A stretch of 64,000 bases of DNA from Dehalococcoidia bacterium. GTDB taxonomy: Bacteria > Chloroflexota > Dehalococcoidia > Lucifugimonadales > CATOSD01. Of the stretch, positions 25,605-62,398 are shown one piece after another; position 1 is the first letter of the stretch; each line of letters starts with the position of its first letter. Where the stretch lies: positions 3,213,747-3,277,746 of the forward strand of contig OZ242014.1 in the NCBI GenBank assembly GCA_965204815.1. Reading direction: 5' to 3'. Under the pieces are notes generated by a model. The model had not been told where the DNA came from. It worked only from the letters and a program-made list of their open reading frames with translations, and searched no databases. Both the position numbers and the translations under genes were made by a program.

Positions 25605-25658
25605 GGGGCCGGCTCTGAACTGTTGCCACCCCGCCACTTCTATGGCGCGTAAACTCGC

Positions 25659-25669
25659 CATACGGTATG
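25659..25669. promoter_or_regulatory. palindrome CATACGGTATG, possible antitoxin operator
   Basis: Inverted repeat between TCGCCA and TATGAT just upstream of the AbrB-type gene. Confidence 0.4.
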
Positions 25670-25703
25670 ATATTTCTATGATGATATTCATACGAGGTAA
25701 GTC

Positions 25704-25919
25704 ATGCGCATATCCGAACGCGGACAAATCACCATCCCCAAGCGATTCAGAGACCGCTTCGGCATGAACAAGGACGTAGAGGTCGAAATCACGCCCACCG
25801 AACACGGCCTGCTCATCCAAAAGCGATCGGCGGCGCAGCATCCGGTCGAGAAGATTAGTGGAATCCTGGATGGGGCTGTGGACGTTGACCAGTACATCGA
25901 AGAGATTCGGGGAAGATGA
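25704..25919 (+). CDS. AbrB/MazE/SpoVT family antitoxin
   Basis: MRISERGQITIPKRFRDRFGM. Confidence 0.9.
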   Translation: MRISERGQITIPKRFRDRFGMNKDVEVEITPTEHGLLIQKRSAAQHPVEKISGILDGAVDVDQYIEEIRGR

Positions 25920-26107
25920 TCACGTCGGTTGATACCAATGTCCTGTTGGATGTCTTCGTCTCGACCGCACCGCACCACTCTCAATCGCAGAAATGGCTGA
26001 TAGACGCCTACGACAGAGGAGCCATACTTGTCTGCGACGTCGTATACGCGGAGCTTGTTCCGGCGTTTGGAGACCGCACGTCGCTGGACAACGCGCTAGC
26101 GCAGTGA
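25916..26107 (+). pseudogene. truncated PIN/VapC toxin
   Basis: MITSVDTNVLLD...VVYAEL then a stop at 63 aa; C-terminal half of the PIN domain absent; ATGA overlap with the antitoxin. Confidence 0.82.
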
Positions 26108-26156
26108 GATCGACCGAACGGCCTGCAATCGAAACATAGCGCCGCCACACACTCCG

Positions 26157-26228
26157 CGCCGCACGACCGCGGCTTCATGCTGGCGGATGTGGTGTTCGAC
26201 GTGGCCGCACGTTCAACGGCAAGAGCTT
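26157..26228 (+). repeat. displaced copy of an internal 5' fragment of the class IV aminotransferase gene
   Basis: Matches 32097-32169 with three substitutions and a 1-bp deletion. Confidence 0.92.
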
Positions 26229-26269
26229 ACGGCTGGACGGTGGACGTGCATCCGGCGACGCTGGCGTAG
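26229..26269 (+). repeat. priA 3' end, partial copy 2
   Basis: ACGGCTGGACGGTGGACGTGCATCCGGCGACGCTGGCGTAG. Confidence 0.92.
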
Positions 26270-26304
26270 AGCGGAGGATGACAGGCGGTGGGTGATTCGC
26301 TAAC

Positions 26305-28850: not shown

Positions 28851-28858
28851 GGGAAGTC

Positions 28859-31351: not shown

Positions 31352-31388
31352 GCCTTTGCCGCGTCTCAGATTGGTCTCCTTTCTTCGC

Positions 31389-31488
31389 TCGACAAAACGC
31401 CCCGTGTGATGTAGCATCCTCTCTCACTCCCCCTGTCGCTTCTGGTGGCAGGGTAGCAAGGCCACCTTCGAGGTGGCCTTTGCATTTT
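31389..31488 (+). ncRNA. candidate small RNA with its own promoter and terminator
   Basis: TCGACA-17 nt-TAGCAT, then a CU-rich leader, hairpin CCCTGTCGC/GTGGCAGGG, and a terminator hairpin. Confidence 0.45.
31458..31488 (+). terminator. intrinsic terminator
   Basis: Perfect stem AAGGCCACCT/AGGTGGCCTT followed by TGCATTTT. Confidence 0.65.
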
Positions 31489-31593
31489 GCGAGACTATGA
31501 CTGCCAACATCCATTCGTACTCCGCAGAGGCGTCCCCTTGTGGTTGTCCTGTGGCGAGGCGTCGCCGCGGCCGATTCCGACCCCTACACGCCC

Positions 31594-31623
31594 TTGACCT
31601 CCTCCGCACATCCGTGCTAGCAT
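31594..31623 (+). promoter_or_regulatory. sigma70-type promoter with palindromic spacer (element copy B)
   Basis: TTGACC-18 nt-TAGCAT containing GCACATCCGTGC (31606-31617), identical to copy A. Confidence 0.6.
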
Positions 31624-31856
31624 ACCTTTGACAAGGGACTGACCCACCGACCTGGCGCCCACGGATGCGGCGTTCGGCGCCCCCTGCCGGCCTGTCCCAT
31701 TTTCACCCGATGCCGTAACCTCCATACCTAAATGCGCCTCATTTGGGGCTATCAATCGTCCTAACCGCCAACACTCCCAGCTATGAGACGCAACGGAATG
31801 CAACGATTTGCATCAGTCTTCGGCAAATTTGGCGCCCGCAGGCGCTCTTTGGCCTC

Positions 31857-31938
31857 TCCGGAGCCGCGCCGTCTGCTGGACACGGTTGCCGTGCCCAACG
31901 GCTGGACGGTGGACGTGGACCCGGCGACGCTGGCGTAG
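31857..31938 (+). repeat. priA 3' end, direct repeat copy 3 (displaced)
   Basis: Encodes the identical PEPRRLLDTVAVPNGWTVDVDPATLA*; differs by four synonymous codon changes and TGA>TAG. Confidence 0.95.
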
Positions 31939-32035
31939 GAGAAGCGGCGGCGTATTCCCCCGCTTTGCGCACAACGCTATACTATCCCCAAACACAGCAG
32001 ACACGCCCGGTGAAGCGCGGGCGAAAGGGGGAGGC

Positions 32036-32941
32036 ATGGCAGACTACACGGCCTATTTCAACGGGGATTGGGTGCCGTTCGACGACGTGAAGGTGTCGCC
32101 GCACGACCGCGGATTCATGCTGGCGGACGTGGTGTTCGACGTGGCCCGCACCTTCAACGGCAAGAGCTTTCGCATGAAGCAGCACGTCGACCGGCTGTAC
32201 CGCTCGCTCAAGTTCGTTCGCATCGACCCGGGGCTCTCGCACGAGGAGATGATGTCCATCAGCGAGGAGTCCATCGAGCGCAACATGGACAGGCTGCCGG
32301 AGGCGGGCGACTTCACCGTTCGCCAGTGGGTCACGCGCGGGCCGGGCCGCTGGGCGCACACCTCGGGGCCGCCCTCCGTGTGCGTGGAGGTGCAGCCCAT
32401 CTCGTTCGACCGGTTCTCCGGCCTGTACGCGGACGGCGCGCACGGCGTCATAGCCCGGACCCGCAGCTTTCCCGCCGAGACCCTCGATCCCAAGGTCAAG
32501 CACCACAGCCGCATGAACTTCAATCTCGCCGAGCTGGAGGCCGCCGACGTCGACGAGTCCGCCTGGCCGATCCTGCTGGACGTGGACGGCAACCTGACCG
32601 AGGGCATCGGCTACAACGTGTTCCTGGTCACCGACGGCGTGCTGCGGCTGCCCGGCGACAGCACCCTGCTGCAAGGCGTGTCGCGCGGCATGGTTGTGGA
32701 CCTGGCGCGGCAGCTCGACATCCCCGTCGCCGAGGAGGAGATGCAGCCCTACGACCTGTACACCGCCGACGAGGTGTTCTTCTCCGGCACCAGCCCCTGC
32801 GTGCTGCCCGTCACGCGGGTGGACCGGCGGGAGGTCGGCGACGGCAAGCCGGGTCCGGTCACCGAGCAACTGCTCGCGGCGTGGAGCGAGACCGTGGGGC
32901 TGGACATAGTGGACCAGGCGCTGCGCTTCAGCAGAGGATGA
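32036..32941 (+). CDS. PLP-dependent aminotransferase class IV (IlvE/DAAT-like)
   Basis: HDRGF, HVDRLYRS, PKVKHHSR, TEGIGYNVF, LLQGVSR, ADEVF. Confidence 0.92.
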   Translation: MADYTAYFNGDWVPFDDVKVSPHDRGFMLADVVFDVARTFNGKSFRMKQHVDRLYRSLKFVRIDPGLSHEEMMSISEESIERNMDRLPEAGDFTVRQWVTRGPGRWAHTSGPPSVCVEVQPISFDRFSGLYADGAHGVIARTRSFPAETLDPKVKHHSRMNFNLAELEAADVDESAWPILLDVDGNLTEGIGYNVFLVTDGVLRLPGDSTLLQGVSRGMVVDLARQLDIPVAEEEMQPYDLYTADEVFFSGTSPCVLPVTRVDRREVGDGKPGPVTEQLLAAWSETVGLDIVDQALRFSRG

Positions 32942-37586: not shown

Positions 37587-37661
37587 TGGTCGGGGTGGCC
37601 GGGATTGAACCGGCGGCCTCCTGCTCCCAAAGCAGGCGCGCTCCCTCTGCGCCACACCCCG
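37587..37661 (-). tRNA. tRNA-Pro(TGG)
   Basis: Acceptor stem CGGGGTG/CACCCCG, anticodon arm CCTGC-TTTGGGA-GCAGG, T-arm GCCGG-TTCAATC-CCGGC, encoded CCA; TATAAT upstream. Confidence 0.96.
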
Positions 37662-51700: not shown

Positions 51701-52129
51701 TCACACGGCGGTGACTTCGACTTTGAGCGAGAGGCCCACCACCCGGAGTGCTCTGTGAAGCTGGCCGATGCGGGAGTTGTGCTCCGGGTTGGTCAGCTTG
51801 CGCGCGGCGGCCTCGCTGACGCCCAGCCGATTGGCGAGCTCGACCTTGGTAATGCGTTGCGCCCGCATGGCCGAGTAGAGGGCGAGCTTTGCCGCGACGA
51901 CGCTGGGCACCGGCACGTAGGTGTGGCCGTCCGTCGCGCTGCTGGGAGTCGGGATGTCTCTCTTGTCGAGTACGTATCCCGTAAGGGCAGTGGCAAGCGC
52001 GTCTTCGGCCATTGCCAGAGCCTCATCCCGGTCGGCACCGCCGGTGATAGCCTCGGGCACGTCGGGGAAAGTGACTACAAGACCACCTTCTTCGTCCGGC
52101 GTGAGCTCGCATGGATAGGCGTACATCAT
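51701..52129 (-). CDS. hicB: HicB family antitoxin
   Basis: LVVTFPDVPEAITGG...EALAMAEDAL, IPTPS, C-terminal HTH. Confidence 0.92.
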   Translation of the reverse strand: MMYAYPCELTPDEEGGLVVTFPDVPEAITGGADRDEALAMAEDALATALTGYVLDKRDIPTPSSATDGHTYVPVPSVVAAKLALYSAMRAQRITKVELANRLGVSEAAARKLTNPEHNSRIGQLHRALRVVGLSLKVEVTAV

Positions 52130-52132
52130 TGC

Positions 52133-52339
52133 TCAGAACTCCCTTTGGTCGATATCCAGTTGGCGTAGCATCGCCGCGAGCAGGCCCTTGCTCAGTTCGC
52201 CGCGTTTTATCGTGGCAAACCGTGCGCCTACATAGACCCTGCCGTGACTGCCCTTGCCGTGCGAGGGATCGAAACGGAAAGACTTCCCGGTTCTGCGGGC
52301 ATATTGCCGCGCCCGCCCGATGAACTCACGGCTGGTCAT
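52133..52339 (-). CDS. hicA: HicA family toxin
   Basis: GKGSHG, ELSKGLLAAMLRQLDI; 68 aa, directly upstream of hicB. Confidence 0.87.
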   Translation of the reverse strand: MTSREFIGRARQYARRTGKSFRFDPSHGKGSHGRVYVGARFATIKRGELSKGLLAAMLRQLDIDQREF

Positions 52340-52482
52340 AAGATCATTGTCGCACCTTAATGTACGGATAGCAACGGAATCTGGGAGGAAGGGACTGAGA
52401 CGCGCGGGTTGTGTTAAGGTTCGGCCTGTAGCGCGAGGCGCGCCATAGACGGCGCGCAAGGAGCATCGGGGAGGGAGCAGAT

Positions 52483-53877
52483 ATGGATGAACTGACGTAT
52501 CGTTCGGCGAAGAGTATCGCGCAGGCGATTCGGGACAAGTCCGTGTCGGTGAGGGAGGTGGTGGACGCGCATCTGCGCCGGATCGAGGAGGTGAACCCGG
52601 TCATCAATGCCGTGGTGCAACTGGCGCCGGAGCGGGCGGAGGCGGAGGCGCGGGAGCTGGACGACGCGCTCGCGCGGGGCGAGGTGATGGGTCCACTGCA
52701 CGGCGTGCCCATCACGATGAAGGACTCGTTCGACACGGAGGGGATCGTGTCCACGGGCGGCACGCTGGGCCGCGCTAACTACGTGCCGGACCAGGACGCG
52801 ACGCCGGTGGCGCGGCTGCGGGCCGCGGGCGCGGTGCTGCTGGGCAAGACGAACACGCCGGAGCTGACGATGGCGGCGGAGACGGACAACCTGGTGTACG
52901 GACGCACAAACAATCCGTTCGACGTGTCCCGCACGCCGGGGGGCAGCAGCGGAGGCGGGGCGGCCATCATCACGGCGGGAGGCTCGCCGCTGGACCTGGG
53001 CACCGACACGGGTGGCAGCATCCGGTTCCCGTCCCACTACTGCGGCATCGCGGGCCTCAAGCCAACCACCGGGCGGGTGCCGCGCACGGGCCACATCATC
53101 GGACCCGACATGGGCGCCGCGCAGGCGCTGACCGTGGTCGGTCCGATGGCGCGGTACGTGGAGGACCTGGATCTGGCGTTTCCCATCATCGCCGGCCCCG
53201 ACTACCGCGACCCGCACATCGTGCCTGTGCCGATTGGCGACCCGGGCGAGGTGGACCTGTCCAGTCTACGGGTGGCGTACTACACCGAGGCGGCGGGCGC
53301 GACTCCGACGCCGGAGACGGCGCGTGCGGTGCAGGACGCGGCGGCCGCGCTGGCGGACGCGGGGGCGACCGTGTCGGAAGAGTCGCCGTCGGCGCTGGAC
53401 GCCGTGCAGGTCAGCTTCCTGGCGCTCATCGGCGCGGACGGCTTTGCGTGGGGCGACCGGCTGCTGGAGCGGTCGGGCACGACGCGGGAGCACTACTGGA
53501 TTACGATGTGGAAGGAGATGGCGCAGCCGCTGGGCACGGGCGATTACACGGCGTTGCTGGAGGAGTTGGACCGGCTCAGGGCCGACATGATCGCGTTCAT
53601 GGAGACGCGCGACCTGATAGTGTGTCCCATCTCGGCGGGGCCGGCGCTGCTTCACGGCGCGTCTTACGACGAGGAGCACATGCGCGGGCTGGGCTACTCG
53701 GGCGTGTACAACCTGACGGGCTGGCCGTCGGCGATAGTGCGCGTGGGCACGTCGCCGGAGGGTCTACCGATAGGGGTGCAGATGGTGGCGCGCCCGTGGC
53801 GTGAGGACGTGTCGCTGGCGGCGGCGCGGGTGCTGGAGGGGGCGTTCGGGGGATGGCGCGCGCCGGGCGGGGTGTGA
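52483..53877 (+). CDS. amidase signature enzyme
   Basis: GPLHGVPITMKD, GKTNTPE, GGSSGG, DTGGSIR. Confidence 0.95.
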   Translation: MDELTYRSAKSIAQAIRDKSVSVREVVDAHLRRIEEVNPVINAVVQLAPERAEAEARELDDALARGEVMGPLHGVPITMKDSFDTEGIVSTGGTLGRANYVPDQDATPVARLRAAGAVLLGKTNTPELTMAAETDNLVYGRTNNPFDVSRTPGGSSGGGAAIITAGGSPLDLGTDTGGSIRFPSHYCGIAGLKPTTGRVPRTGHIIGPDMGAAQALTVVGPMARYVEDLDLAFPIIAGPDYRDPHIVPVPIGDPGEVDLSSLRVAYYTEAAGATPTPETARAVQDAAAALADAGATVSEESPSALDAVQVSFLALIGADGFAWGDRLLERSGTTREHYWITMWKEMAQPLGTGDYTALLEELDRLRADMIAFMETRDLIVCPISAGPALLHGASYDEEHMRGLGYSGVYNLTGWPSAIVRVGTSPEGLPIGVQMVARPWREDVSLAAARVLEGAFGGWRAPGGV

Positions 53878-53926
53878 GGGGGTACACACCTAAAACGGCG
53901 GACCGTCGCTTGACATGTTCCCACCT

Positions 53927-54868
53927 TCAGGCACCTTGTTTAGGGCCTAGGAACTCGTCCCCGTCAAAGTGGATCAGGTGGTCGGGAATCTCAGCTATCC
54001 AGACTTCGGTTTCCCATGCGATCTTTTCGATATGTTGCTTGAATTGCCGGAAGTCCGGGAAAGCGCTGACATACAGGCGCGAAGCGATGCAATCCCTGAG
54101 CACGACTTCCATTTCCTCGACCCGCTTGGGAGTCACCGGCCCGTGAGACGTAACCGCCTCCACTAGAAAGAGGCGATTTCGCTCCTCGACATAGAGCACC
54201 ACGTCCGGCAGCTTGTCGTGTTCGGTGAGTGAAACGCCGAGCCGAGTCAGCTTCTCCCTGTCCAAGTGCAGGAGTTTATTGGCGGTGTCACCCAGGTACA
54301 ACAGAGTCGAGCCAGGGGCGAACCTCGGACCGAAGTCCATCACAACCTGGGCCTGCAACCTGTTGTGCTTCCCAGGGGAAAGCCGAATTTCTTTCCCTTC
54401 CGATGTACGCACGGGTATCTCGCGCATCCTGCGCCGCCTCTCGTACATCTCCAGCAGAGCGCCATGACTGGAACGGAAGGCGCGCAATTCTGATTTCCAG
54501 CCGCCGGTCTGGTACAGCCGCAGCACATCAAGCGCTTCGTCGGTCAGGCCGTAATGTGTCTTGGGGCTGTTAGTAGGAAGGTCGGGGTCGTCCGGGTTGC
54601 GGTCTACCACGCGCGCCTGCTCCAACTGGTGGATGACTTGACGCCGAACCGCCTCCCGGGTGTTCTCAGCATACTCCCGGCCATAGGCGTCTCGCATGAA
54701 TCCCAGTATCTGGTGGATAGTGAGTGAAGGCTTGGAAGCCCCGCTCCAAGGGTCATCTTCACCCAGACCGGTGAGAGCCAAGAGGGTTAGGCAAGATATG
54801 TCGTTCCGCTGAGCCGGAGGCAGTCCCAGTTGCTCCAGAATGTCCCGAGCCTCGTCAATCTTGCTCAT
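53927..54868 (-). CDS. BsuBI/PstI family type II restriction endonuclease
   Basis: YAENTREAVRR, LSPGKHN, HDKLPDVV, EAVTSHGP, IAWETEVW, HLIHFDG. Confidence 0.93.
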   Translation of the reverse strand: MSKIDEARDILEQLGLPPAQRNDISCLTLLALTGLGEDDPWSGASKPSLTIHQILGFMRDAYGREYAENTREAVRRQVIHQLEQARVVDRNPDDPDLPTNSPKTHYGLTDEALDVLRLYQTGGWKSELRAFRSSHGALLEMYERRRRMREIPVRTSEGKEIRLSPGKHNRLQAQVVMDFGPRFAPGSTLLYLGDTANKLLHLDREKLTRLGVSLTEHDKLPDVVLYVEERNRLFLVEAVTSHGPVTPKRVEEMEVVLRDCIASRLYVSAFPDFRQFKQHIEKIAWETEVWIAEIPDHLIHFDGDEFLGPKQGA

Positions 54869-56565
54869 ACCACTGCAGACTCTGGACCGGCGCACAGTTC
54901 AGAAGATATGCCGAGGGTTCCGGCGACAAGAGCGTCAAGGTCGCAAAGTTCCGTCCCGATCCCAGGTTGGGCCTTGACCGCCGTCCCGATTGAGCGAATG
55001 TCGCGCTCATGCGGCAGCGGCAGGGCGCGCAATTCGGTGGCGCTGACCTGGGTGTTTCCATTCGATATTCGGAAGTAGCGGTCCAGGAACGCCGAATTGA
55101 AGATCGCCGAGAGACCGTAGGCTGATTCCTCATCCAATTCTCTCGAATCGCCTCGAACATAGTTCAGATGATTCTCCAGCCCCATCACGCCAAAACCCAG
55201 GGAACCTCGAATTAGGGGTGCTGACACTAACCGGCGCTTCTCTTCCTTCACGCTGAAGCGGCGGAGAAGGACATAAGTCTCATCTCCCAATAGAAGCTTG
55301 GTGGATTCAGGCACGGCCTTGATCCATTGTGGCTTCTCCTTTGCCGTCGATGGCCAAGTCGTTCTCATAGGGCGGACATGGTGCATCCACAATAGAGGAG
55401 CCGGTGAGTCGCTCGGTCGAGTGTGGGACAGGAACTGAGTTGCTCTGAACGGAACGACGGGGCCGGTGGAGACCTTCAAGCCGAGAGAGCGGAGCGTGTT
55501 CGGCCAAGTCCGCAAGACTTGTACCAGTTTCACATCCTCCTCGCATAGAGGGATGGACAATTCCCTGTTTTCACTCGCCAAATCCATCACCGAGTCGAAG
55601 TCCACCAGCAGGTGGCGGCGTTCGGCGAGATCGTGAGCCGCCTTGCTATGGGACACGAGCACCTGACGCTCGCCCCCGGTCTTGTCTTCCGTCCGCCTCT
55701 GGGCCATGATTACGACGTTTTCCTGGAGCACGGACTGGTTCTTGAATACGTCCTTCCTAGACTCGAAGAGATGGATGGACTTTGGATCTACGCGTCGGAA
55801 GAATATCTCCCTGAATCTCCTGAAGTACGGCCCTGACGCGAAGCTCCTTGGCACGATGTACACCAGCTCCCCGACCGGCGATAGTAGTTCGGCGGATATC
55901 GCCATGAAGAGTGCGTATATATTGGGCTGTCCATGAACCACAGGCGCCCAAGCGACAGCCCTCGGATCGTTCTTGGCTATCTTGAAATACGGTGGATTGG
56001 AAATCACCAAGTCGTACTCGGCACGGAATCCATCGTTGACGTCATAACCGTTGGCATCCGACGCGACTCTGAGTTGTGGCGCGTACTCCAGTACGAAATC
56101 CCTGTTTCTGACATCGAAGGTCAATTCTATATCTCGTCGCGCAAGCCAGTCGCGCGAAAAGGCAAGGGTGAGACTAGTGAGGCGCGCCAGCAAAGGATCG
56201 GTCTCAAAGGCGTCGATATGCAGACTCTTGACGCTTTCCACATTCGCCGCTACTTCGCACGTCGCAGCGGACAGAATTCCCGTTCCGCTCCCCGGGTCCA
56301 ACACACGCACGTGCGGCCCTGCGTGCGAAGAGCGTTCCGCCATAAACCTAGCGATTGGGACCGGCGTCAGATAGTGACCGCCGCTCTTTCGTCGACTGCG
56401 TCCTGAGTACCCCAGATAGGACTCTCCGAGAACCTCGGCATATTCCACCGGCGTGGAACATGCCTCAGGGCTGGGCAGACTCAGACCAGTGGGGAAGGGA
56501 GCGACGGGCGTATGTAAAGTCTCTCCGCTCAATACATCAGTTTCTGGAAATTCCCTATTCGACAT
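54865..56565 (-). CDS. N6-adenine DNA methyltransferase (Eco57I-domain, BsuBI/PstI partner)
   Basis: LDPGSGTG, NPPY, GPYFRRFR, STGPVVPFR, ENHLN, GNTQVSATEL. Confidence 0.92.
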   Translation of the reverse strand: MSNREFPETDVLSGETLHTPVAPFPTGLSLPSPEACSTPVEYAEVLGESYLGYSGRSRRKSGGHYLTPVPIARFMAERSSHAGPHVRVLDPGSGTGILSAATCEVAANVESVKSLHIDAFETDPLLARLTSLTLAFSRDWLARRDIELTFDVRNRDFVLEYAPQLRVASDANGYDVNDGFRAEYDLVISNPPYFKIAKNDPRAVAWAPVVHGQPNIYALFMAISAELLSPVGELVYIVPRSFASGPYFRRFREIFFRRVDPKSIHLFESRKDVFKNQSVLQENVVIMAQRRTEDKTGGERQVLVSHSKAAHDLAERRHLLVDFDSVMDLASENRELSIPLCEEDVKLVQVLRTWPNTLRSLGLKVSTGPVVPFRATQFLSHTRPSDSPAPLLWMHHVRPMRTTWPSTAKEKPQWIKAVPESTKLLLGDETYVLLRRFSVKEEKRRLVSAPLIRGSLGFGVMGLENHLNYVRGDSRELDEESAYGLSAIFNSAFLDRYFRISNGNTQVSATELRALPLPHERDIRSIGTAVKAQPGIGTELCDLDALVAGTLGISSELCAGPESAVV

Positions 56566-56722
56566 CGTTCGTTAGGACGGGTGGACAATCCTTGCAACGG
56601 TGGACGAGACTTACTTTATGAGCGTACACATGTTCGCACATCCTGATCGTCGCCGTCAACCCACACATTTGACACTGCGCCAGCCCAGCGCAGTGGACGA
56701 GGAATTCGGAATGACTACTGCG

Positions 56723-56830
56723 CTACCCACGCTTGCGCGCCACCGCGCGGCGGGCGGCTTGGGCTACGTCGGCGGCGGTGAGGTGATACTTGGCCATGAG
56801 GGCGTCGGGGGCGCCGGCCGGGGTGTAGCC
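56723..56830 (-). repeat. displaced diverged copy of the transketolase 3' end
   Basis: Encodes GYTPAGAPDALMAKYHLTAADVAQAARRAVARKRG* versus GYAESGAPDALMAKYHLTAADVAQAARRAVARKAV* at 59062-59169. Confidence 0.95.
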
Positions 56831-57299
56831 ACTGAGAAGGTTCAGTCTCGGAATGAGAAGAGCGGCAAGAGCTCATCCCGTATGTAGTTCACGTCGTCGC
56901 GGTCTATTCCCACGTACAGCCCCTCATCGGTTGAGGATACCCAATCGAAAAAGCCGGCGGCGTCTTCAACATCTCTGAGAGTAAGCTTCAACGAATTGGT
57001 CCTGCCGTACTCATCACGCTGCTCGACAGTTATCCTGCCTTGATCCAACAGGTAATCCAAGAACTCTTCCACATCCACTGTGTCAATCTTAACGCGGGTG
57101 ACGTTGCCGCTCCCATCAGTCACGACGGTCTCCAGACTGCCATCGCTAATGACAACATAATTGGCCTCACCCGGAGACCCTGCGTAACCAGTGCCAGACT
57201 CTAGTAAGGACTCATCAAAATTTCTAAGTATGCGACGATCTAAATGTCCTTTGTTTATACCGAACTGTTTGTCCAGATAATTTTCACCTTTGGACTCTA

Positions 57300-58107
57300 G
57301 GTAGTGTTGACATTTCATCTTAGCCATATGAGAGCGCCGACGAAGTGGAGAAATCCAAGGTATCTATCCGCCAGCTTGTCGAATCGGGAGAAGATGTGGC
57401 GGTAGTGCTTGATCTTGCCTATGAAGCACTCAACGAGATGCCGCTCCCGGTACAGATACTCATCGTATGAGGGTGGCTCCCTGCGGTTCGAGCGAGGCGG
57501 GATCACCGGGGTAGCCTCGTTGCCGATGATCGACTCACGAAACTGACGGGAGTCATATGCGCGGTCTGCAATCACATACTCGCTCTCCATACCCCACACG
57601 AGCGCCTCGGCCTGAGTGACATCGTGCTCCTGTCCTGCGGTCAGCGTATACCTCAAGGGATTGCCGAGGCCATCGACAGCCACGTGGACCTTCGTAGTGA
57701 ACCCACCTCGGCTTCGACCGAGGGCTTGAGATGCTTGACCACCCTTTTTTTGGGTGCGCCCGCAGCCGAATGATGGGCCCGGACTATGGTACTGTCGATT
57801 ATCAGGTGCTCCATGTCAGGATCATCGGCGAAATGCTGATGCATTCGCTCCCATACTCCGTTCTCACACCATCGGCCGAACCGCTTGTAGACGCTGTTCC
57901 ATTTCCCATACTCGGAAGGCAGTAGCCTCCATGACGCGCCAGACCTGCTCATCCACATGATAGCCTCGATGAACCGCTCACAGTCGGCCTCCTGTCCGAC
58001 ATACACGTCTGGCTGGCTACGAAGGAACTCCAACACCCGTGACCATTGCTCTGGAGATAGGTTAACTGTTGACATATACCCAGTATAATGCAAATGTCAA
58101 CACTACC
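57300..58107 (-). mobile_element. IS5-family insertion sequence, complete
   Basis: Perfect 16-bp terminal IRs GGTAGTGTTGACATTT; TA duplication at 57298-57299 and 58108-58109. Confidence 0.93.
57315..58075 (-). CDS. IS5 transposase, two ORFs probably joined by a -1 frameshift
   Basis: orfA WRLLPSEYGKWNSVYKRF, IDSTIVRAH; A7 slippery run at about 57745-57751; orfB ADRAYDS, YRERHLVECF. Confidence 0.88.
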
Positions 58108-59061
58108 TAATAGTTTATAAATTGCAACAGACACCTTATCACCCGAAACCGCAATTGGATCTCCACTAACAACGCTCCTCTTCTGTGCAGAGGTTAGAAC
58201 GCCTTCCTTGTGCAAATAATCTAGAAGAACACCTGCGTTCCTAAAGCTAACATAAACGAGACCAGCTCCGTTATCATAACCAAAAGAGGCGTAAGCATTA
58301 TTAGAACTTGGTTTAATAACAACTTCTTCGCTCACTCGAGTTGGGGCAGCAGCAGGGACAGGAACTTTGGTAGGTGTGGCAATCGCTTCAGCAACAACTG
58401 GCTCTGAATCTTCAGTAAACCCGACCAGGTATTTCACGTCTTCTTTTTCCAGTCCGAAGCGCTCTTTCAAATCGTCATAGCCCTGGCTTTGGACCAACTC
58501 GAACATATTGTTGGCTAGTTCGTCGATGGTTAGCTGCAGAACCTGTTCTTGTTCGTATCTTTCCAGTTCTTTCTGGTCAATCGCTCCTGAGGCAGCCAGA
58601 TATTCTACAAAGCTCTGGGCGTCCGTTAATTCGATCACTTTCCGCCCTTTGTCAGAATCGATGTAGAAGTCGCTTCCCCTGAGAACCACGCTGTTGTCTT
58701 CAACAGCCAAGGGCTGTGAAGTCGGAGCGGGCGGAGGAGCGGTTGCGGTCGGAGAAATGGGGGTTTCTCCAGCAACAGCACCAGGGGGAGAGGCGGTGGG
58801 AGCTTCAACTTGCTGAACAACGGGCGCGGGTGCCGGAGGCGGCTCGGACCTGCCGGTCAAGGCGAACACTGCCAAAGCAGCGACGGCGACTACGGCAATC
58901 GCTCCGGCGATCTTGGTTGATCGGGGAGCTTCTCTGACTCTTTCAACAAGGCCTGACAAGACGAACTCCAAGCCCTCCGCTCATTCCCAACTGCCATACG
59001 GTGTAACCCATGTCCCCGGTCTATACACCCATCGAGGGAGAAGGGATGGTGGTGCTGCCCC

Positions 59062-60003
59062 CTACACCGCCTTCCGCGCCACCGCTCGCCGGGCGGCTTG
59101 GGCTACGTCGGCGGCGGTGAGGTGGTACTTGGCCATGAGGGCGTCGGGGGCGCCGGACTCGGCGTAGCCGTGGAGGGCGACCGTCTCCTGGGGCGTGGGA
59201 GCCTCGCGGGCGAGGGTCTGGGCGACCATGCCGCCCAGCCCGCCGACGACGTAGTGCTCCTCCGCCGTGACGATGGCGCCGGTCTCGCGCGCGGCGGCGA
59301 TGACGGCCGCCTCGTCCAGCGGCTTGATCGTGGCCGTGTTGAGCACGCGGCAGGAAATGCCCTCGGCGGCGAGCGTCTCGGCGGCCTCGAGCGCGACGCT
59401 CACCATGATGCCGCACGCCACTATCGCCACGTCGTCGCCCTCGCGCATCGTCTCGGCCTCGCCGAGGCGGAAGTCGTAGTCCTCGGCGTGCACCACCGGG
59501 GTGGCAGAGCGTGACAGCCGGACGTAGAAGGGGCCCTGGGTGGCGACGGCGCTGCGGACTGCGCGGACGGTCTCGGGGCCGTCCGCAGGGACGACGACGG
59601 TGAACTCGGGCAGCGCGCACATGAGCGCGAGGTCCTCGATGCTGTGGGCGGACACGCCGTCCTCGCCGGTGATGATGCCGCTGTGGGTGGCGATGACCTT
59701 GACGTTGAGGCGCGGCTGGGACACTCCGACGCGGAGCTGGTCGTGGGGCCGGCTGGTGGAGAAGACGGCGAACGTGCTGACGACGGGTATCTTGCCGGAG
59801 GAGGCCATGCCCGCGGCCACGCTGACGATGTTCTGCTCGGCGGGGCCGAAATCGAAGAAGCGGTCGGGATACTTTTCGCCGAACAGGAAGGCGAAGGTGG
59901 AGACGTTGAGGTCGCCGCCGAGTACGACGAGGTCGGGGAACTCGGCTCCCAGCTCTACGAGCGTCTGCCCGGCTACTTCGCGTGTGACGGCGGTCTCGGC
60001 CAT
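59062..60003 (-). CDS. transketolase, C-terminal (pyrimidine-binding) subunit
   Basis: FGPAEQN, TFAVF, GEDGVSAH, TIKPLD, TAEEH. Confidence 0.94.
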   Translation of the reverse strand: MAETAVTREVAGQTLVELGAEFPDLVVLGGDLNVSTFAFLFGEKYPDRFFDFGPAEQNIVSVAAGMASSGKIPVVSTFAVFSTSRPHDQLRVGVSQPRLNVKVIATHSGIITGEDGVSAHSIEDLALMCALPEFTVVVPADGPETVRAVRSAVATQGPFYVRLSRSATPVVHAEDYDFRLGEAETMREGDDVAIVACGIMVSVALEAAETLAAEGISCRVLNTATIKPLDEAAVIAAARETGAIVTAEEHYVVGGLGGMVAQTLAREAPTPQETVALHGYAESGAPDALMAKYHLTAADVAQAARRAVARKAV

Positions 60004-60028
60004 TTGGCGGTCTCCCTCGGTTTGGATG

Positions 60029-60883
60029 CTAACCTATCTCTTCCAGGGCCTGGGCTAGCTGCTCGGGGCTGGGGGCCTTGCCGTGGAAGTTTGCGTTGTT
60101 TTCCATGAAGCTGATGCCCTTGCCCTTGACGGTCTTGGCGATTATGGCGGTGGGCCTGCCGCTAGTGGCGGCAGCCTCGTCGAAGGCACCGACGAGCTGG
60201 GCGACGTCGTGGCCGTCCACCTCGAGGGCGTTCCAGCCGAAGGCGCGCCACTTGTCCGGCAGCGGCTCCAGGTTCATCACCTCGTGCGTCCAGCGGTCGT
60301 TCTGGATGCCGTTGCGGTCCACGATGGCGACCAGGTTGTCGAGCGCGTAGTGGGACGCGGACATGGCGGCCTCCCACACCTGGCCCTCGTCGCACTCGCC
60401 GTCGCCGAGCAGCACGTAGGCGCGGGTGGGCCGGCCGTCCAGCCGGGCGGCGAGCGCGGTGCCCACGCCGAACGATAGGCCCTGGCCGAGCGAGCCGCCG
60501 GACATCTCCACGCCGGGCGTCTTGATGTGGGCGTGGCCCTGCAGACGGCTGTCTATCTTGCGGAAGGTCATCAACTCTTCGGTCTCGAAGTAGCCGGCCT
60601 CTGCGAGCGCCGCGTAGAGCACCGGACAGGCGTGGGCCTTGCTGAGCACGAAGCGGTCGCGTTCCTGCCACTTAGGATCGGAGGGACGGTGGCGCATGGT
60701 GTGGAAGTAGAGCGACGCCAGAATCTCGACGGACGAGAGCGAGCCGCCGGGGTGGCCGCTGTTGGCCTCCGCGATCATGGTGAGGATGTTGCGGCGCATG
60801 GAGCGCGCGGTGGACCGTAGGGAGTCCAGGTCGGGCTCGCTGGCTACCGGGCGTTCGTCGGGGCTGGACACAGGTGTATGCAC
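60029..60883 (-). CDS. transketolase, N-terminal subunit
   Basis: SGHPGGSLS, DRFVLSKAH, GSLGQG, GDGECDEGQVWEA, TVKGKG. Confidence 0.95.
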   Translation of the reverse strand: MHTPVSSPDERPVASEPDLDSLRSTARSMRRNILTMIAEANSGHPGGSLSSVEILASLYFHTMRHRPSDPKWQERDRFVLSKAHACPVLYAALAEAGYFETEELMTFRKIDSRLQGHAHIKTPGVEMSGGSLGQGLSFGVGTALAARLDGRPTRAYVLLGDGECDEGQVWEAAMSASHYALDNLVAIVDRNGIQNDRWTHEVMNLEPLPDKWRAFGWNALEVDGHDVAQLVGAFDEAAATSGRPTAIIAKTVKGKGISFMENNANFHGKAPSPEQLAQALEEIG

Positions 60884-60940
60884 CTCCCTGCTGGCGATGG
60901 GGGGTATTATAGCAATCGGTTGGGGTAGTGGGTAGTGGGG

Positions 60941-62398
60941 CTACCGCGAGGCGGTGAGGGCTTGCCAGGCGGCGGTGAGGGTGTCTTCGTCAGGGGCGAA
61001 GAGAGCGAGGGTGTGCGTGGAACCGGCGGAGAGGCGGACGACGCGGCCAGGCAGGTCGAGCAGTTCGCCGTCGCCATCGTCGGCGGGGCGCCAGTCGGCG
61101 TCGGACTGGGAGAGGAGCGCGGCGCGCGCGGCGGCGTGGAACTCGGTGGCGTCCTCCTCGGTGTCCCAGGCCAACCGCCAGGCGAGCACCAGACCGCCAT
61201 CCGTGTGCTGCCACAGGACGAGGCGGTCGCCGCCCCAGCCGGCTGCGGCGCTGGACGCGGCGGCTATGCCGTCGGCGGTCTCTTCGGCGTGGGTGGCAAG
61301 ATAGGACGCCAGCAGGAACTCGCCTAGCGTGTCCTGTCCGATTTCGGTCCATCCATCGCCCAGCGCGGCGGCCAGGTCGGGGATTTCCACGGGCACGGGC
61401 GTCTCGGAGTCGAGAAACTTGTCGACGTGGAGCACCTGCTCGGTGGAGACGGGCGGGTTGGCAAAGGCGTCGTCGATGAGCGCCCAGCCGCCGGCCTGTT
61501 GGAATAGCTGCACCGTGAACTCGAAGCCGCGCGTGTACGGAAACAGCAGGGAGTCGCGGACCAGGCGAGGGGCGTCGACGAACGGGTCGTCGGACGAGGT
61601 GCTCTCCTGCCGGGCGGCCTGCTGCTGATCTCCGGTGAGCTCGTAGTTGAAGTAGAGCACCTCGACGATGGTGGCGTCGCCCTCCACGAGGCTGCGGTAG
61701 GCCAGCGAGCGGTCGGTGTCGGCATGGTCCAGCTTGTCGAACCCGGCCTTCAGGTCGAAGTTGCGGTGCTGCAGGGCGTGGGCGTACTCGTGCGCATAGG
61801 TGAGGATTTCGCGGGCGGATAGGTCGTCGTCATCATCGACGACGTATATCTTGTCCTCGTCGGTGTCGAAGAAGCCCAGCACGGAGCCGGAGTAGAGGTT
61901 AACCAGGACATCGAAAAGGTCGTCATCGGCGCCCAGAATGCCGAGCGTGGTGTAGATACCTTCGGCCAGCTCTATGTCCTCTCTGTCCTCCTCCAGGTTC
62001 TCGCCCAACCGCTCGCGCAGTTCGGCCTGGTCGATGAACTCGCGGTCGACCTCCAGAAAGGCGAAGAGCTCGCGGATGCCGGAGGCGCGGCGCTCCACGT
62101 CGTCGAGCGTGGCGTCCAGCCGCCCGGACGACACGGGAGTGGGCACGGGTGTGGCGATGGAGGGAACGGTGGTGGGCAGGATGACCGGGCCGGGATCGAA
62201 CTCTGGCGCCGGGGTGGGCGTCGGCGTGGCGGTCGGCGCGGGCATCGGAGTGGGGGCGACGGTGGGCGTGGCGATAGGCGCTGCCGTAGGTGTGGGCGTC
62301 GGCTCAGAGTCGCCGCCGCAGGCCGTGGCGAGGGCGGCGAGCACGACGGCAACGGTGAGGGTCAGGAGCGCGCGCGCGACGGCGCGGTGGATTGACAA
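60941..62398 (-). CDS. putative lipoprotein with HExxH zinc-metallopeptidase motif
   Basis: Lipobox ATAC, PT-rich linker, GFFD, AHEYAHALQ, EGDAT, FPY..G, PPVSTEQVLH, GWGGD; start approximate. Confidence 0.75.
   Translation of the reverse strand: MSIHRAVARALLTLTVAVVLAALATACGGDSEPTPTPTAAPIATPTVAPTPMPAPTATPTPTPAPEFDPGPVILPTTVPSIATPVPTPVSSGRLDATLDDVERRASGIRELFAFLEVDREFIDQAELRERLGENLEEDREDIELAEGIYTTLGILGADDDLFDVLVNLYSGSVLGFFDTDEDKIYVVDDDDDLSAREILTYAHEYAHALQHRNFDLKAGFDKLDHADTDRSLAYRSLVEGDATIVEVLYFNYELTGDQQQAARQESTSSDDPFVDAPRLVRDSLLFPYTRGFEFTVQLFQQAGGWALIDDAFANPPVSTEQVLHVDKFLDSETPVPVEIPDLAAALGDGWTEIGQDTLGEFLLASYLATHAEETADGIAAASSAAAGWGGDRLVLWQHTDGGLVLAWRLAWDTEEDATEFHAAARAALLSQSDADWRPADDGDGELLDLPGRVVRLSAGSTHTLALFAPDEDTLTAAWQALTASR

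Follow-up and report, generated by a model that had tools for sequence, protein, structure and literature searches.

A low-GC gene cassette between two copies of a transketolase gene end in a Dehalococcoidia bacterium

The transketolase locus and its second gene end

The window analysed here, a stretch of 64 kb from a Dehalococcoidia bacterium, contains the genes for the two subunits of a transketolase (tkt). The last 108 nt of the C-subunit gene (59062–59169) are present again at 56723–56830, approximately 2.3 kb downstream. The two copies are 89% identical (96/108) and form the longest two-copy direct repeat in the window; in the whole genome the tail occurs exactly twice (2/2 matches to a 151-nt query). 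Both copies are in frame on the minus strand, share a core of 28 residues, GAPDALMAKYHLTAADVAQAARRAVARK, with four silent codon differences (TAC/TAT, CGG/CGC, CGA/CGC and CGG/CGC), and terminate with TAG. The features of the locus, in the direction of tkt transcription, are the following:

60029–60883, minus strand: gene for the transketolase N-terminal subunit, 284 aa (Pfam Transketolase_N, E 6.7e-53)
59062–60003, minus strand: gene for the transketolase C-terminal subunit, 313 aa, intact and ending in the proximal tail (Pfam Transket_pyr and Transketolase_C)
59062–59169, minus strand: proximal, gene-attached copy of the 108-nt tail (repeat search and position-by-position comparison)
58972–59061, minus strand: 90-nt spacer from the tkt stop to the TTG start of the cassette gene (read from the sequence)
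58110–58971, minus strand: N-terminal piece of the cassette gene, 287 codons (open reading frame; no Pfam or PADLOC match)
57298–58109, minus strand: insertion sequence of the IS5 family (DUF4096, DDE_Tnp_1; NCBIfam transpos_IS5_3)
56842–57299, minus strand: C-terminal piece of the cassette gene, 151 codons and stop (open reading frame)
56723–56830, minus strand: distal, displaced copy of the 108-nt tail with its own TAG and no gene attached (repeat search; 3' flank collinear with the single-tail flank of congener G003)
54865–56565, minus strand: gene for a Type II DNA methyltransferase, 566 aa, outside the repeats (Pfam Eco57I and N6_Mtase; PADLOC MTase_II, E 2.5e-102)
53927–54895, minus strand: gene for a BsuBI/PstI-type restriction endonuclease, 322 aa (Pfam BsuBI_PstI_RE and its N-terminal domain; PADLOC REase_II, E 4.2e-106)
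52483–53877, plus strand: amidase gene, convergent with tkt (Pfam Amidase, E 3.7e-111)

The tkt C-subunit protein is 92–97% identical to those of eight congeners. Between the tail copies the GC content is 0.44–0.55, compared with approximately 0.70 in the flanks. In the spacer, GGAGGG is found a little upstream of the TTG start, and the approximately 34 nt that follow the tkt stop are similar to the corresponding flank of another congener (G007). Beyond the distal tail, two BsuBI_PstI endonuclease domains (E 4.1e-57 and 1e-44) stand beside an N6-adenine methylase, and on these domain matches the restriction–modification (RM) pair is a predicted BsuBI/PstI-type Type II system. The initial annotation had described a recurring tail with an identical 28-aa core, silent differences and its own stop, one foreign-looking AT-rich gene with a later IS5 between the copies, and an RM system past the displaced tail. 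Each of these elements stands: 96 of the 108 nucleotides agree and both copies end with TAG, the gene is of low GC content and missing from 8/8 congener loci, and the RM genes code for a BsuBI/PstI-type endonuclease and an Eco57I/N6-type methylase.

No Rfam family reached its gathering score in 53000–61000, the sole tRNA gene of the window lies at 37587–37661, and a promoter and terminator scan of 56500–59300 gave nothing telling. In the interval from the RM pair to the amidase gene, neither a repeat search nor short-word BLAST detected a decayed third tail.

A repeat-induced chimera, joined with an unrelated contig at the shared core, can hardly account for this layout. Short-read contigs do break inside the shared repeat core, and solely there, so that the phase of the two copies is not proven by them. 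Against an artefact, however, all unique junctions are covered without mismatch and at an even depth of 7–10 by the contigs of run X11, and the genome is a single contig of 3.31 Mb. The layout also makes biological sense, as tkt is intact, the flank is collinear with that of G003 and the same architecture recurs elsewhere in the genome. The read contigs thus agree with the assembly, and the chimera that had been named as a possible pitfall is not what they indicate.

The interrupted cassette gene

After in silico removal of the insertion sequence and one TA, the cassette frame is open for 439 codons, and the restored protein aligns end to end with P0002, one intact homologue of 435 aa, at 54% identity. 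The N-terminal piece comprises a conserved N-terminus, one membrane helix, a Pro/Ala-rich linker, domain 1 and part of domain 2. The cassette product is thus predicted to be a membrane-anchored repeat protein of 439 aa. Pfam, PADLOC and ESM Atlas gave no match that would indicate its function. The AlphaFold2 model of P0002 (mean pLDDT 56) contains two confident alpha/beta domains; Foldseek found nothing in the PDB at E <= 0.001 for this model, and the best Z score in VIA-align, 4.1, is within noise.

The cargo protein was not found in the eight congeners or in two further members of the family. Among 400 other genomes of the phylum it had 16 weak matches (best E 1.6e-6), and in a collection of 5.8 billion proteins, restricted to near lengths, P0002 was the sole non-self match. 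P0002 itself had matches in 7 of 400 other genomes of the order, none of them within the family. None of the nine homologue loci fetched has a transketolase tail beside the cargo gene; at the best of them (G747) similarity begins exactly at the stop codon. A donor genome in which the cargo gene adjoins a transketolase gene was not found in these searches. Direct repeats around the homologues in another genome (G659) were considered as target duplications and rejected, being extragenic palindromes of that genome's own.

The IS5-type element proper occupies 57300–58107, has perfect terminal inverted repeats and is bounded by TA at both ends (target duplication). Its transposase lies in two frames (57653–58093 and 57315–57683), which score 112.6 and 113.6 bits with NCBIfam transpos_IS5_3 (cut-off 110). 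With a predicted DDE transposase, terminal inverted repeats and a short target duplication all present, the secondary insert is assigned to the IS5 family. The element has 15 matches in the genome, 14 of them full-length (this one included) and one spanning its positions 37–812. It lies within the cargo gene, which it splits, and 14 further copies are present in the genome; it must therefore have arrived after the cassette. The cargo gene may well have been under selection until the element landed.

Empty sites, recombinases and further islets

The genus comparison comprised nine genomes, this one and its congeners, with one genome per species, and provided eight tkt loci from seven congeners. 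The cassette is missing from all eight loci. This absence, together with the failure to find the protein in relatives, indicates that the cassette is foreign to the genus. Comparison of the locus across related genomes, which the initial annotation had proposed, also revealed the empty site: in G003, G006 and G008 the same PstI-type RM pair lies directly behind a single tkt tail. The single 111-nt tail of G003 aligns both with the distal copy and its RM flank (window 52388–56830, 92%) and with the proximal copy and tkt (59059–60938, 91%), and the methyltransferase gene is common to the three genomes at 86–92% nucleotide identity. The interval between the transketolase and amidase genes is a swap spot: in the genus as a whole it is occupied by four different sets of defence genes. 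Its far boundary is the stop codon of the amidase gene, as congener alignments stop 3–18 nt past it.

The cassette was initially described as integrase-free, and this description holds. There is no integrase in the cassette locus of the window or among 22 open reading frames of five congener loci (0/22), and no PF00589 match lies near the congener tkt genes, the nearest on the contig being 272 kb off; at the second tkt locus of G005 such a match would be approximately 40 kb away only if the contig is circular. An integrase-bearing parent element, whose presence at this site would have told another story, was not found at tkt in the nine genus genomes. The sole PF00589 matches of the genome are XerD (343.5 bits, cut-off 329.6) and an XerC-like protein. 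With integron integrase models, these two tyrosine recombinases score approximately 130 bits at best (cut-off 265). The genome also encodes, 2.7 Mb away, one large serine recombinase whose scores are Ccr/XisF-like. In G000, G004 and G006, likewise, the only tyrosine recombinases are two of the Xer type.

Approximately ten other low-GC defence islets in the genome are bracketed in the same way, at different genes and by repeats of 41–468 nt. At priA, the gene tail at 25523–25602 is repeated at 31857–31936 (95%), with a third copy of 41 nt at 26229–26269; the repeats are thus 80 and 41 nt long here, compared with 43–55 nt in G008. Tail-plus-cargo modules at this site are ordered differently in G000 and G008, and the same Type I RM unit (80% nucleotide identity) comes after the priA tail in this genome but after the tkt tail in G005. 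The ogg repeat measures 399 nt here and 97 nt in G006. Its left copy agrees with G001 at 393/439 positions and its right copy with G003 at 406/439, whereas left and right agree with each other at only 365/439; by these identities the two ogg copies are derived from two lineages. In the 468-nt pair of the GmrSD islet, the gene-attached copy has the native letter at the two differences closest to the 5' end; of the 17 others, 14 are native in the displaced copy. The early view that the tkt site repeats the architecture seen at priA, and is no one-off accident, is thereby extended to roughly nine further bracketed loci in this genome. A search for sequence shared by the tkt and priA islands at their crossover points, as initially proposed, found only a 10-mer, which is present at 3/11 island junctions (tkt, priA and NYN) and nine times in the genome. 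Its positions and orientations differ, there is no extended similarity around it, and allowing one mismatch adds no junction hits; it is probably due to chance.

These data bear on the possibility that the 108-nt tail is an attachment site whose integrase is encoded at another place or has been lost. Such an arrangement would be comparable to cis-mobilisable elements that stem from integrative conjugative elements, or to the SCC-type cassettes without a recombinase that are found at the rlmH end. The target, a conserved gene 3' end whose reading frame is restored, would fit, as would the large serine recombinase and the displaced tail of G005, which starts within approximately 10 nt of the start of the distal copy. 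The latter comparison involves only two tkt events, here and in G005, with similar 5' edges; at ogg and priA the extents of the repeats differ. Against site-specific integration speak the absence of an integrase at the tkt site throughout the nine genomes and the restriction of G000, G004 and G006 to two Xer-type enzymes. Moreover, some ten different genes are targeted, repeats of 41–468 nt differ in length even at one site, no junction sequence is conserved, and the tails fold no better than shuffled sequence (z from -0.8 to +1.1 for both strands of both copies). This already weakened reading seems improbable.

The origin of the two tails

The tail copies differ at 12 positions, and only one difference falls within positions 14–80. 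The initial annotation had asked which of the tails matches the empty-site allele, and each copy does so in part: the proximal copy agrees with all eight congener loci at positions 7, 10, 11, 13 and 45 on the 5' side, whereas the distal copy agrees with them at positions 81 (8/8), 84 (7/8) and 104 (8/8), at all three of which the proximal copy is unique. The tail mosaic is not clean: at positions 100–102 the distal copy, not the proximal one, has the unique letters, although the displaced tail of G005 ends with the same three. A derived A at position 72 is common to both copies and missing from all eight congener tails. The four 5' changes of the distal copy would encode T-P-A. Among 94 homologous tails, a set that includes loci from a metagenome scan with the transketolase protein, YAESG occurs in 52 and TPAG in none (0/94). 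The distal copy is therefore, as far as its predicted product tells, not a working foreign tail, and the 0/94 count is consistent with decay or with a joint made where the similarity was imperfect. The metagenome scan provided no extra alleles of the tkt hot spot, all of its 80 loci being at <=75% identity. A foreign tract further upstream in the tkt genes was also considered and rejected, as sliding windows put G003/G006 nearest or within approximately 4 points of the nearest.

The tkt cassette is, in our view, probably an insertion with long target duplication that arose without an integrase, through host recombination and not through a dedicated recombinase. The recombination enzymes of the cell itself would have joined imported DNA with one accessory gene to the end of the gene for the tkt C-subunit. 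At one joint, the exchange would have passed through the conserved last codons, leaving tkt with a functional end of slightly changed sequence. The other joint would lie approximately 95–108 nt upstream of the stop codon of the resident gene, in a short stretch where similarity is imperfect. The resident tkt end would thus have been left as a non-functional copy and displaced downstream together with the pre-existing RM pair. The homologous joint is seen in the flanks, as the proximal copy continues from the gene and the distal copy into the resident flank of the G003 type. A route with a homology-anchored exchange and an illegitimate second joint is what we infer from this arrangement; an illegitimate joint upstream of the homologous exchange would need two target copies (a sister chromosome) or a circular intermediate. 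The DNA could have entered by an uptake route, to which the presence of ComEC and DprA in the genome lends weak support because both are widespread.

The edges of the copies can be read in more than one way. At the 5' edge of the distal copy 9/13 nt match the gene before similarity ends, and the same picture is expected from decayed true homology. The six-letter match GGCTAC at the extreme 5' end of this copy suggests real homology over the full 108 nt, which would fit a cassette with its own tail better than a chance joint. The three unique changes of the proximal copy (two of them silent) could be ordinary lineage-specific substitutions, in which case no foreign sequence is needed in the proximal tail.

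An origin of both copies from one resident target is favoured by the A at position 72 and the near-identical middle, and opposed by the clustering of the odd positions in the cassette-facing parts. Staggered breaks approximately 108 nt apart followed by fill-in would produce such a pair: two resident tails, initially identical and later diverged by mutation. Only one difference in the middle 67 nt and the common derived A are consistent with this, and from the 91–92% identity of the flanks we estimate that neutral drift after the separation from G003 could account for eight changes in a copy without function. The changes are, however, clustered: four fall within a stretch of 7 nt and three stand side by side. 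Moreover, the displaced tail of G005 has the same three-letter ending as the distal copy, and the ogg copies of this genome come from two different lineages. Staggered breaks therefore have little chance of being the right explanation.

Unlikely too, though to be taken more seriously, is an origin by release and re-invasion, in which the cassette would have lain between two transketolase tails in a donor and been freed with one complete tail. A circle of 1.5 kb, or a fragment cut inside both tails, would then have entered by a single exchange of the Campbell or ends-in type, leaving two reciprocal hybrid tails. The cassette-facing parts are indeed the odd ones (distal 7–45; proximal 81, 84 and 104), and the outer parts match relatives; the 468-nt pair of the GmrSD islet has the same block pattern. 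The different orders of the priA modules in G000 and G008, and the Type I RM unit found behind both a priA and a tkt tail, also speak for mobile units of this kind. A life cycle of this type was proposed for RM units by Furuta et al. (PMC2853133), who state that there is no evidence for release and infection. A complete foreign tail should, however, differ evenly along its length, and the differences are uneven, with 7 in 28 nt on one side of the putative exchange point and 1 in 67 nt on the other, an objection tempered by the greater variability of gene ends among relatives as well. The 5' patch of the distal copy is also implausible as a transketolase allele (TPAG in 0/94), and no donor was found. 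In four runs, no contig connected across the cassette or contained a circle junction, but contigs drop rare variants, and this result is therefore uninformative on absence.

Among known systems, integron gene cassettes are compact one-gene units with a recombination-prone site, of which new ones enter at the head of the array. The tkt cassette resembles them as a unit of approximately 1.5 kb before the arrival of the IS, with one gene and one recombination-prone site. It differs in that the genome has no integron integrase, only XerC/D-type enzymes, and in that a coding gene end, instead of a folded attC, serves as the site. In islands inserted at gene 3' ends by an integrase, direct repeats rebuild the end of the target gene. 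The tkt repeats do the same and in this resemble such islands and their integrase-less derivatives; unlike in these islands, no integrase is present in cis or at the site in the nine genus genomes, and the targets are many and the repeat lengths variable.

Displacement of a gene end has reportedly been described by Jackson et al. in 2009 for Rhs C-termini. For the effector–immunity arrays of the type VI secretion system of Vibrio cholerae, Kirchberger et al. (2017, PMC5361080) present a model of homology-facilitated illegitimate recombination and displacement. With these arrays, as that model depicts them, the tkt locus shares a conserved upstream anchor, new cargo beside the anchor, an older 3' end kept downstream with its cargo, and the absence of an integrase. 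In contrast to them, its anchor is the gene of a housekeeping enzyme whose product is unrelated to the cargo, and the remnant is a bare 108-nt tail instead of an orphan toxin tip or immunity gene (PMC5361080).

The renewal of defence and surface genes in bacteria without prophages, integrases or plasmids is poorly understood. Insertion with long target duplication is said to have been first described by Nobusato et al. in 2000, and since then scars of this type have been catalogued without a mechanism. As set out in the relevant part of the survey by Furuta et al. (2010, PMC2853133), such inserts are shorter than 20 kb, have no mobility gene of their own, have an atypical GC content and are flanked by direct repeats of more than 30 bp. 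In a related genome, the empty site has one copy with which the repeats align; they often overlap a gene 3' end, and the mechanism is left open there. By this description the tkt cassette belongs to the class, and its scar is real and of a kind already known. It has 108-nt repeats, an empty site with both flanks in G003, G006 and G008, and an insert of 2.3 kb whose only mobility gene is the later-arriving IS. Unlike in the cases surveyed (PMC2853133), the cargo is one gene and the RM pair lies outside the repeats, the presence of R and M genes having been the screening criterion of an RM survey and not a property of the insertion mode. Compared with repeat pairs given there (e.g. 44/46 and 417/423), the tkt copies are only 89% alike and their differences are patterned, not random. 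The host differs as well from those of the class as presented (PMC2853133), being an uncultured bacterium of Chloroflexota type with approximately ten further instances in one genome.

The approximately ten islets without an integrase, the different orders of the priA modules and the Type I RM unit at the priA and tkt tails allow speculation that in this lineage, which is associated with sponges and reefs, the displaced tails are functional components of a cassette system that operates across the genome without a recombinase; we regard this idea as rather doubtful. If it were true, each defence or surface gene would move as a conserved gene tail with its cargo, the tail serving as a portable homology arm. 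Like RM units in the proposed life cycle of release and re-invasion, such modules would loop out, pass between relatives, re-enter by ordinary recombination and occasionally reach a new host gene.

Together with the eight sequenced congeners, this genome constitutes a compact natural data set: a single genome with approximately ten dated-looking events, relatives with empty sites, repeat pairs from two lineages and the same hot spots with different repeat lengths. Population sequencing on this material could separate an illegitimate joint from circular re-entry and from staggered breaks. For annotation, when a gene end recurs in frame and with a stop codon of its own, as at 56723–56830, the second copy is to be treated as a recombination remnant and not as a small gene.

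A duplicated transketolase tail and its low-GC cargo gene

The last 108 nt of the transketolase (tkt) C-subunit gene (59062-59169, minus strand) have a second copy at 56723-56830, and a repeat search identified this pair (89% identity) as the longest two-copy direct repeat of the window. Counted position by position, the gene-attached (proximal) and displaced (distal) copies match at 96 of 108 nt. Both are in frame, end with a TAG stop and share an identical core of 28 residues, within which four codons differ silently; the whole 3.31-Mb genome (G000) contains these two copies only. The initial annotation, which had reported a 108-nt tail repeat, a 28-aa core, silent differences and a separate stop codon, was correct in every point. 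Its description of one AT-rich gene and a later IS5 between the copies, with a restriction-modification (RM) system behind the displaced tail, is confirmed by the locus annotation.

Features of the tkt locus
60883-60029, minus strand: transketolase N-subunit gene, intact
60003-59062, minus strand: transketolase C-subunit gene, intact
Downstream of the C-subunit gene: spacer of 90 nt
58971 (TTG start), minus strand: cargo gene, cut at 58109/57298 by an IS5-family element
Within the cargo gene: IS5-family element of 808 nt, with perfect terminal inverted repeats, a TA duplication and a two-frame transposase
56723-56830: displaced tail, beginning 11 nt past the cargo-gene stop
56565-54865: Type II methylase gene, downstream of the displaced tail
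54895-53927: BsuBI/PstI-type endonuclease gene, downstream of the methylase gene
Ending at 53877: amidase gene, convergent with tkt

Between about 53900 and 59050 the GC content is 0.44-0.62, compared with about 0.70 outside. The IS5-family element has 15 matches in the genome (14 full-length, including the copy in the cargo gene, and one covering 37-812) and is therefore a resident of the genome and a late arrival.

An assembly artefact is extremely improbable. Contigs of read run X11 cover each of the four unique junctions free of mismatches, at depth 7-10, which speaks against the chimera that the initial annotation had considered; they break in the shared tail core only, as is typical of short-word assemblies. 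None of the four read runs gave a contig joining across the cassette, and contigs alone leave the phase of the copies across the core unfixed. In run X12, depth is 69 for a contig identical to 59127-60323 (tkt C-subunit gene), against 0-4 on the cargo gene and RM pair. This is a weak hint, contig depths being poor measures, that in this sample the strain, or one very close to it, has other DNA after the tail in most of its cells.

Once the IS and one TA are removed in silico, the cargo frame is open over 439 codons. Its product has a conserved N-terminus, a single membrane helix, a linker rich in Pro and Ala, and a domain of about 100 residues that occurs three times; when reconstructed, it aligns end to end with the only intact database homologue, P0002 (435 aa), at 54% identity. 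A search of a large protein collection, confined to near lengths, gave P0002 as the one non-self relative; the protein matched no family in Pfam or PADLOC, and the ESM Atlas gave no usable neighbour. Relatives are present in 7 of 400 other genomes of the order, with up to four or more copies in a genome; their repeated domains number two or three, and each gene is far below its surroundings in GC. The homologue loci include L144-L147 in G659 as well as L148 and L149. In G659, which has four or more copies, the homologues are isolated low-GC genes amid high-GC neighbours, each flanked on either side by extragenic palindromic repeats of that genome. The family has the look of an accessory surface-protein gene that is patchy and often multiplied.

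With a mean pLDDT of 56, the AlphaFold2 model for P0002 contains two confident domains, residues 86-175 and 204-307, in which three strands are followed by two helices, one more strand and two more helices. It resembles no solved structure, with nothing at E <= 0.001 in Foldseek and a best Z of 4.1, within noise, in VIA-align. The cargo product would be an exposed, membrane-anchored accessory protein, tied to defence by its genomic address and by nothing else.

The tkt-amidase interval across the genus

The eight congener species, each represented by one genome, have C-subunit proteins 92-97% identical to that of the window. Eight loci from seven of them were compared: G005 contributes two, and G001 was left out, its contig ending 720 nt past the gene. 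The cargo gene is missing from all eight loci, and its protein was not found in the eight congeners or in two family members. This comparison across related genomes, proposed in the initial annotation, did yield a counterpart. In G003, G006 and G008 the same RM pair (86-92% nucleotide identity) stands immediately behind one single tail, an arrangement that is the empty site. Positions 11640-11750 of the G003 locus align with the distal copy and its RM flank and also with the proximal copy and tkt. In the other congeners, differing cargo sits between the convergent tkt and amidase stop codons.

Cargo at the tkt-amidase interval in other congeners
G004 and G002: N4/N6 methylase, weak NotI-like protein, PDC-M11 candidate pair
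G005, both loci: Type I RM and hicAB
G007: 1719-aa DEAD/UvrD helicase fusion

Since the congener alignments end at both gene stops (a few nt from the tkt stop and 3-18 nt past the amidase stop), the whole interval is a swap spot. The order of hicAB and amidase is opposite in the window (51701-53877), where hicBA precedes amidase, and in G002 and G005 (L027, L029, L030), where it follows; the rearranging stretch therefore exceeds the tkt-amidase gap. One G005 locus has a second, more decayed tkt tail adjoining the amidase gene, its 5' edge about 10 nt or less from the edge in the window.

Contig G005:C1 carries the whole priA-to-tkt region twice (about 400-36400 and 3421000-3458300). The two differ slightly, with the displaced tkt tail in one only and GTAGCC versus ATCGCC in the tail. 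The contamination figure of this genome is 9, and the doubling may come from a genuine segmental duplication or from two strains assembled together.

Domain searches detected no recombinase besides the IS transposase at the window locus, and none among 22 ORFs of at least 100 aa at five congener loci; the G002 locus has an IS630-type transposase pair. G000 has two PF00589 matches, XerD (above the equivalog cut-off) and a XerC-like protein, and one large serine recombinase, at 0.58 Mb; G004 and G006 likewise have just the two Xer-type matches. Every PF00589 match that shares a contig with a congener tkt locus is more than 270 kb from it; for the second G005 locus the distance would shrink to about 40 kb, but only with a circular contig. 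The integrase-bearing parent element that the initial annotation had envisaged as an alternative was found neither at the window locus nor at the congener loci. Tail folding is no better than that of shuffled sequence, Rfam has no family within 53000-61000, the sole tRNA gene of the window is at 37587-37661, and no sequence is common to the joints of the bracketed islets. Against these results, site-specific integration in trans has only a small probability.

Shared sequence at the crossover points of the tkt and priA islands, another suggestion of the initial annotation, was not found apart from one 10-mer. In three islets this word, ACCGTATGGC, or its complement is found no more than 100 nt from a repeat junction: tkt (58993-59002), priA (25657-25666) and NYN (G000:3194195). 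It has nine genome occurrences only, varying in position, orientation and context, its one-mismatch copies mark no other junctions, and its proximity to the three may be chance.

Origin of the two tails and a putative insertion route

The 12 differences between the copies were set against the eight congener tails. At positions 7, 10, 11, 13 and 45 the proximal copy agrees with all eight and the distal copy is unique; at 81, 84 and 104 the distal copy agrees with eight, seven and eight of the eight, respectively, and the proximal copy is the odd one, two of its three changes being silent. Position 96 shows a mixed pattern, and at 100-102 the odd copy is the distal one, with three letters that also end the displaced tail in G005. 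The copies differ only once between positions 14 and 80, and at position 72 both have A versus G in all congener tails. As to which tail matches the empty-site allele, a point raised in the initial annotation, the answer is divided: these differences make the G003 allele proximal-like on its 5' side and distal-like at 81 and 84, and its downstream flank continues as the one behind the distal copy.

The 5' patch of the distal copy would read T-P-A. Among 94 homologous tails, 52 have YAESG there and none has TPAG; the patch is therefore not a working foreign allele but either the join itself or decay. Sliding windows along the tkt genes place G003 or G006 first among the relatives or at most about 4 points behind the first. 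An imported tract, if any, would consequently end within the last hundred nt.

The duplicated-tail architecture is an already published type, reportedly first described in 2000 by Nobusato et al. We infer a recombination route for it here from sequence patterns alone. The absence of an integrase, the many target genes, the repeats of 41-468 nt that differ even at one hot spot and the lack of shared joint sequence fit insertion by host recombination functions. The first joint would be a homologous exchange inside the conserved gene end, and a second joint further upstream in the gene end would strand the resident tail. We favour an illegitimate second joint, probably formed at a patch of imperfect similarity; the uneven density of tail differences and the implausible T-P-A patch point to it. 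The same two observations count against arrival of the cargo with a full tail attached, in circular form or as a fragment whose ends lie in two tails, and entry by one homologous exchange. That route is rather unlikely, although it is supported by the cassette-facing odd bases and by the block pattern of the GmrSD islet. Staggered breaks followed by divergence of the copies are a source of low probability. No donor was found for the cassette, and a metagenome scan gave no close relatives. Insertion with an illegitimate second joint, the preferred reading, concerns an architecture that matches 'insertion with long target duplication' (PMC2853133), in print since 2010, and also the homology-facilitated displacement model that was put forward for T6SS and Rhs arrays (PMC5361080).

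Other bracketed islets of the genome

The initial annotation considered the arrangement unlikely to be a one-off, and the genome agrees. In a self-comparison retaining direct repeats of 45-500 nt, 0.8-40 kb apart, with enclosed DNA below 0.60 GC, about nine two-copy pairs (repeats of 77-468 nt) pass besides tkt and priA. The further islets (L043-L051) are at G000 108268, 254266, 675782, 1022237, 1327297, 1535112, 2182262, 2351643 and 3193324; the 39 of their ORFs that were scanned include no integrase.

Islet content by Pfam
GmrSD
Sacsin-type ATPase and SNF2 helicase
Mrr-type nuclease
Dcm, GHKL ATPase and Vsr
STAND-like NTPase beside ogg
NYN protein
ParB_N-like protein
PD40 protein
Islet near a reverse transcriptase

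Four islets were compared with the congeners (hydrolase/SNF2, priA, ogg and APH/GmrSD). The hydrolase/SNF2 site is empty, with a single repeat copy, in G005, G006 and G008. In G000 the repeats are at 675702-675943 and 682257-682498 (L044 2703-2944 and 9258-9499), and the displaced tail has lost 36 nt internally, between two short direct repeats. Behind the gene-attached tail the flank is like that of G001 and G003, and behind the displaced tail it is like that of G005, G006 and G008; the locus therefore joins two haplotypes. PF00589 fragments of about 75 residues, one with an internal stop, are present at G007:C2:2911385-2911609 and G002:C16:2502237-2502464, about 1-1.5 kb ahead of the alpha/beta-hydrolase gene that has the duplicated tail in G000, and may be a remnant of an older integrase-borne element at this hot spot.

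At ogg, every congener has a single copy but G006, which has its own 97-nt duplicate 3.8 kb away; the repeat in G000 is 399 nt. One G000 copy matches G001 at 393/439 and the other matches G003 at 406/439, against only 365/439 between the two; they stem from two lineages. The APH/GmrSD repeat (468 nt, 19 differences) has one copy in every congener. For the two differences closest to its 5' end, the gene-attached copy has the native state; of the remaining 17, 14 are native in the displaced copy.

The priA site is empty, with one tail, in G004, and has its own second tail of 43-55 nt in G008, where the modules are in a different order. In the window, the priA islet (25523-32172) is compound: the priA tail is followed by a small AbrB/PIN-type toxin-antitoxin pair, then by 76 nt from the 5' part of the aminotransferase gene that lies downstream, joined to a priA tail copy of 41 nt, and finally by a 5.6-kb Type I-like RM unit and a third tail (80 nt) before the intact aminotransferase gene. 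The Type I RM genes of this islet (26315-30243) have about 80% DNA identity to the unit behind the G005 tkt tail (L030 7294-11226). Counted from the tail, the gene order is R, M, S at both sites, so that a single cargo is found behind the tails of two different genes.
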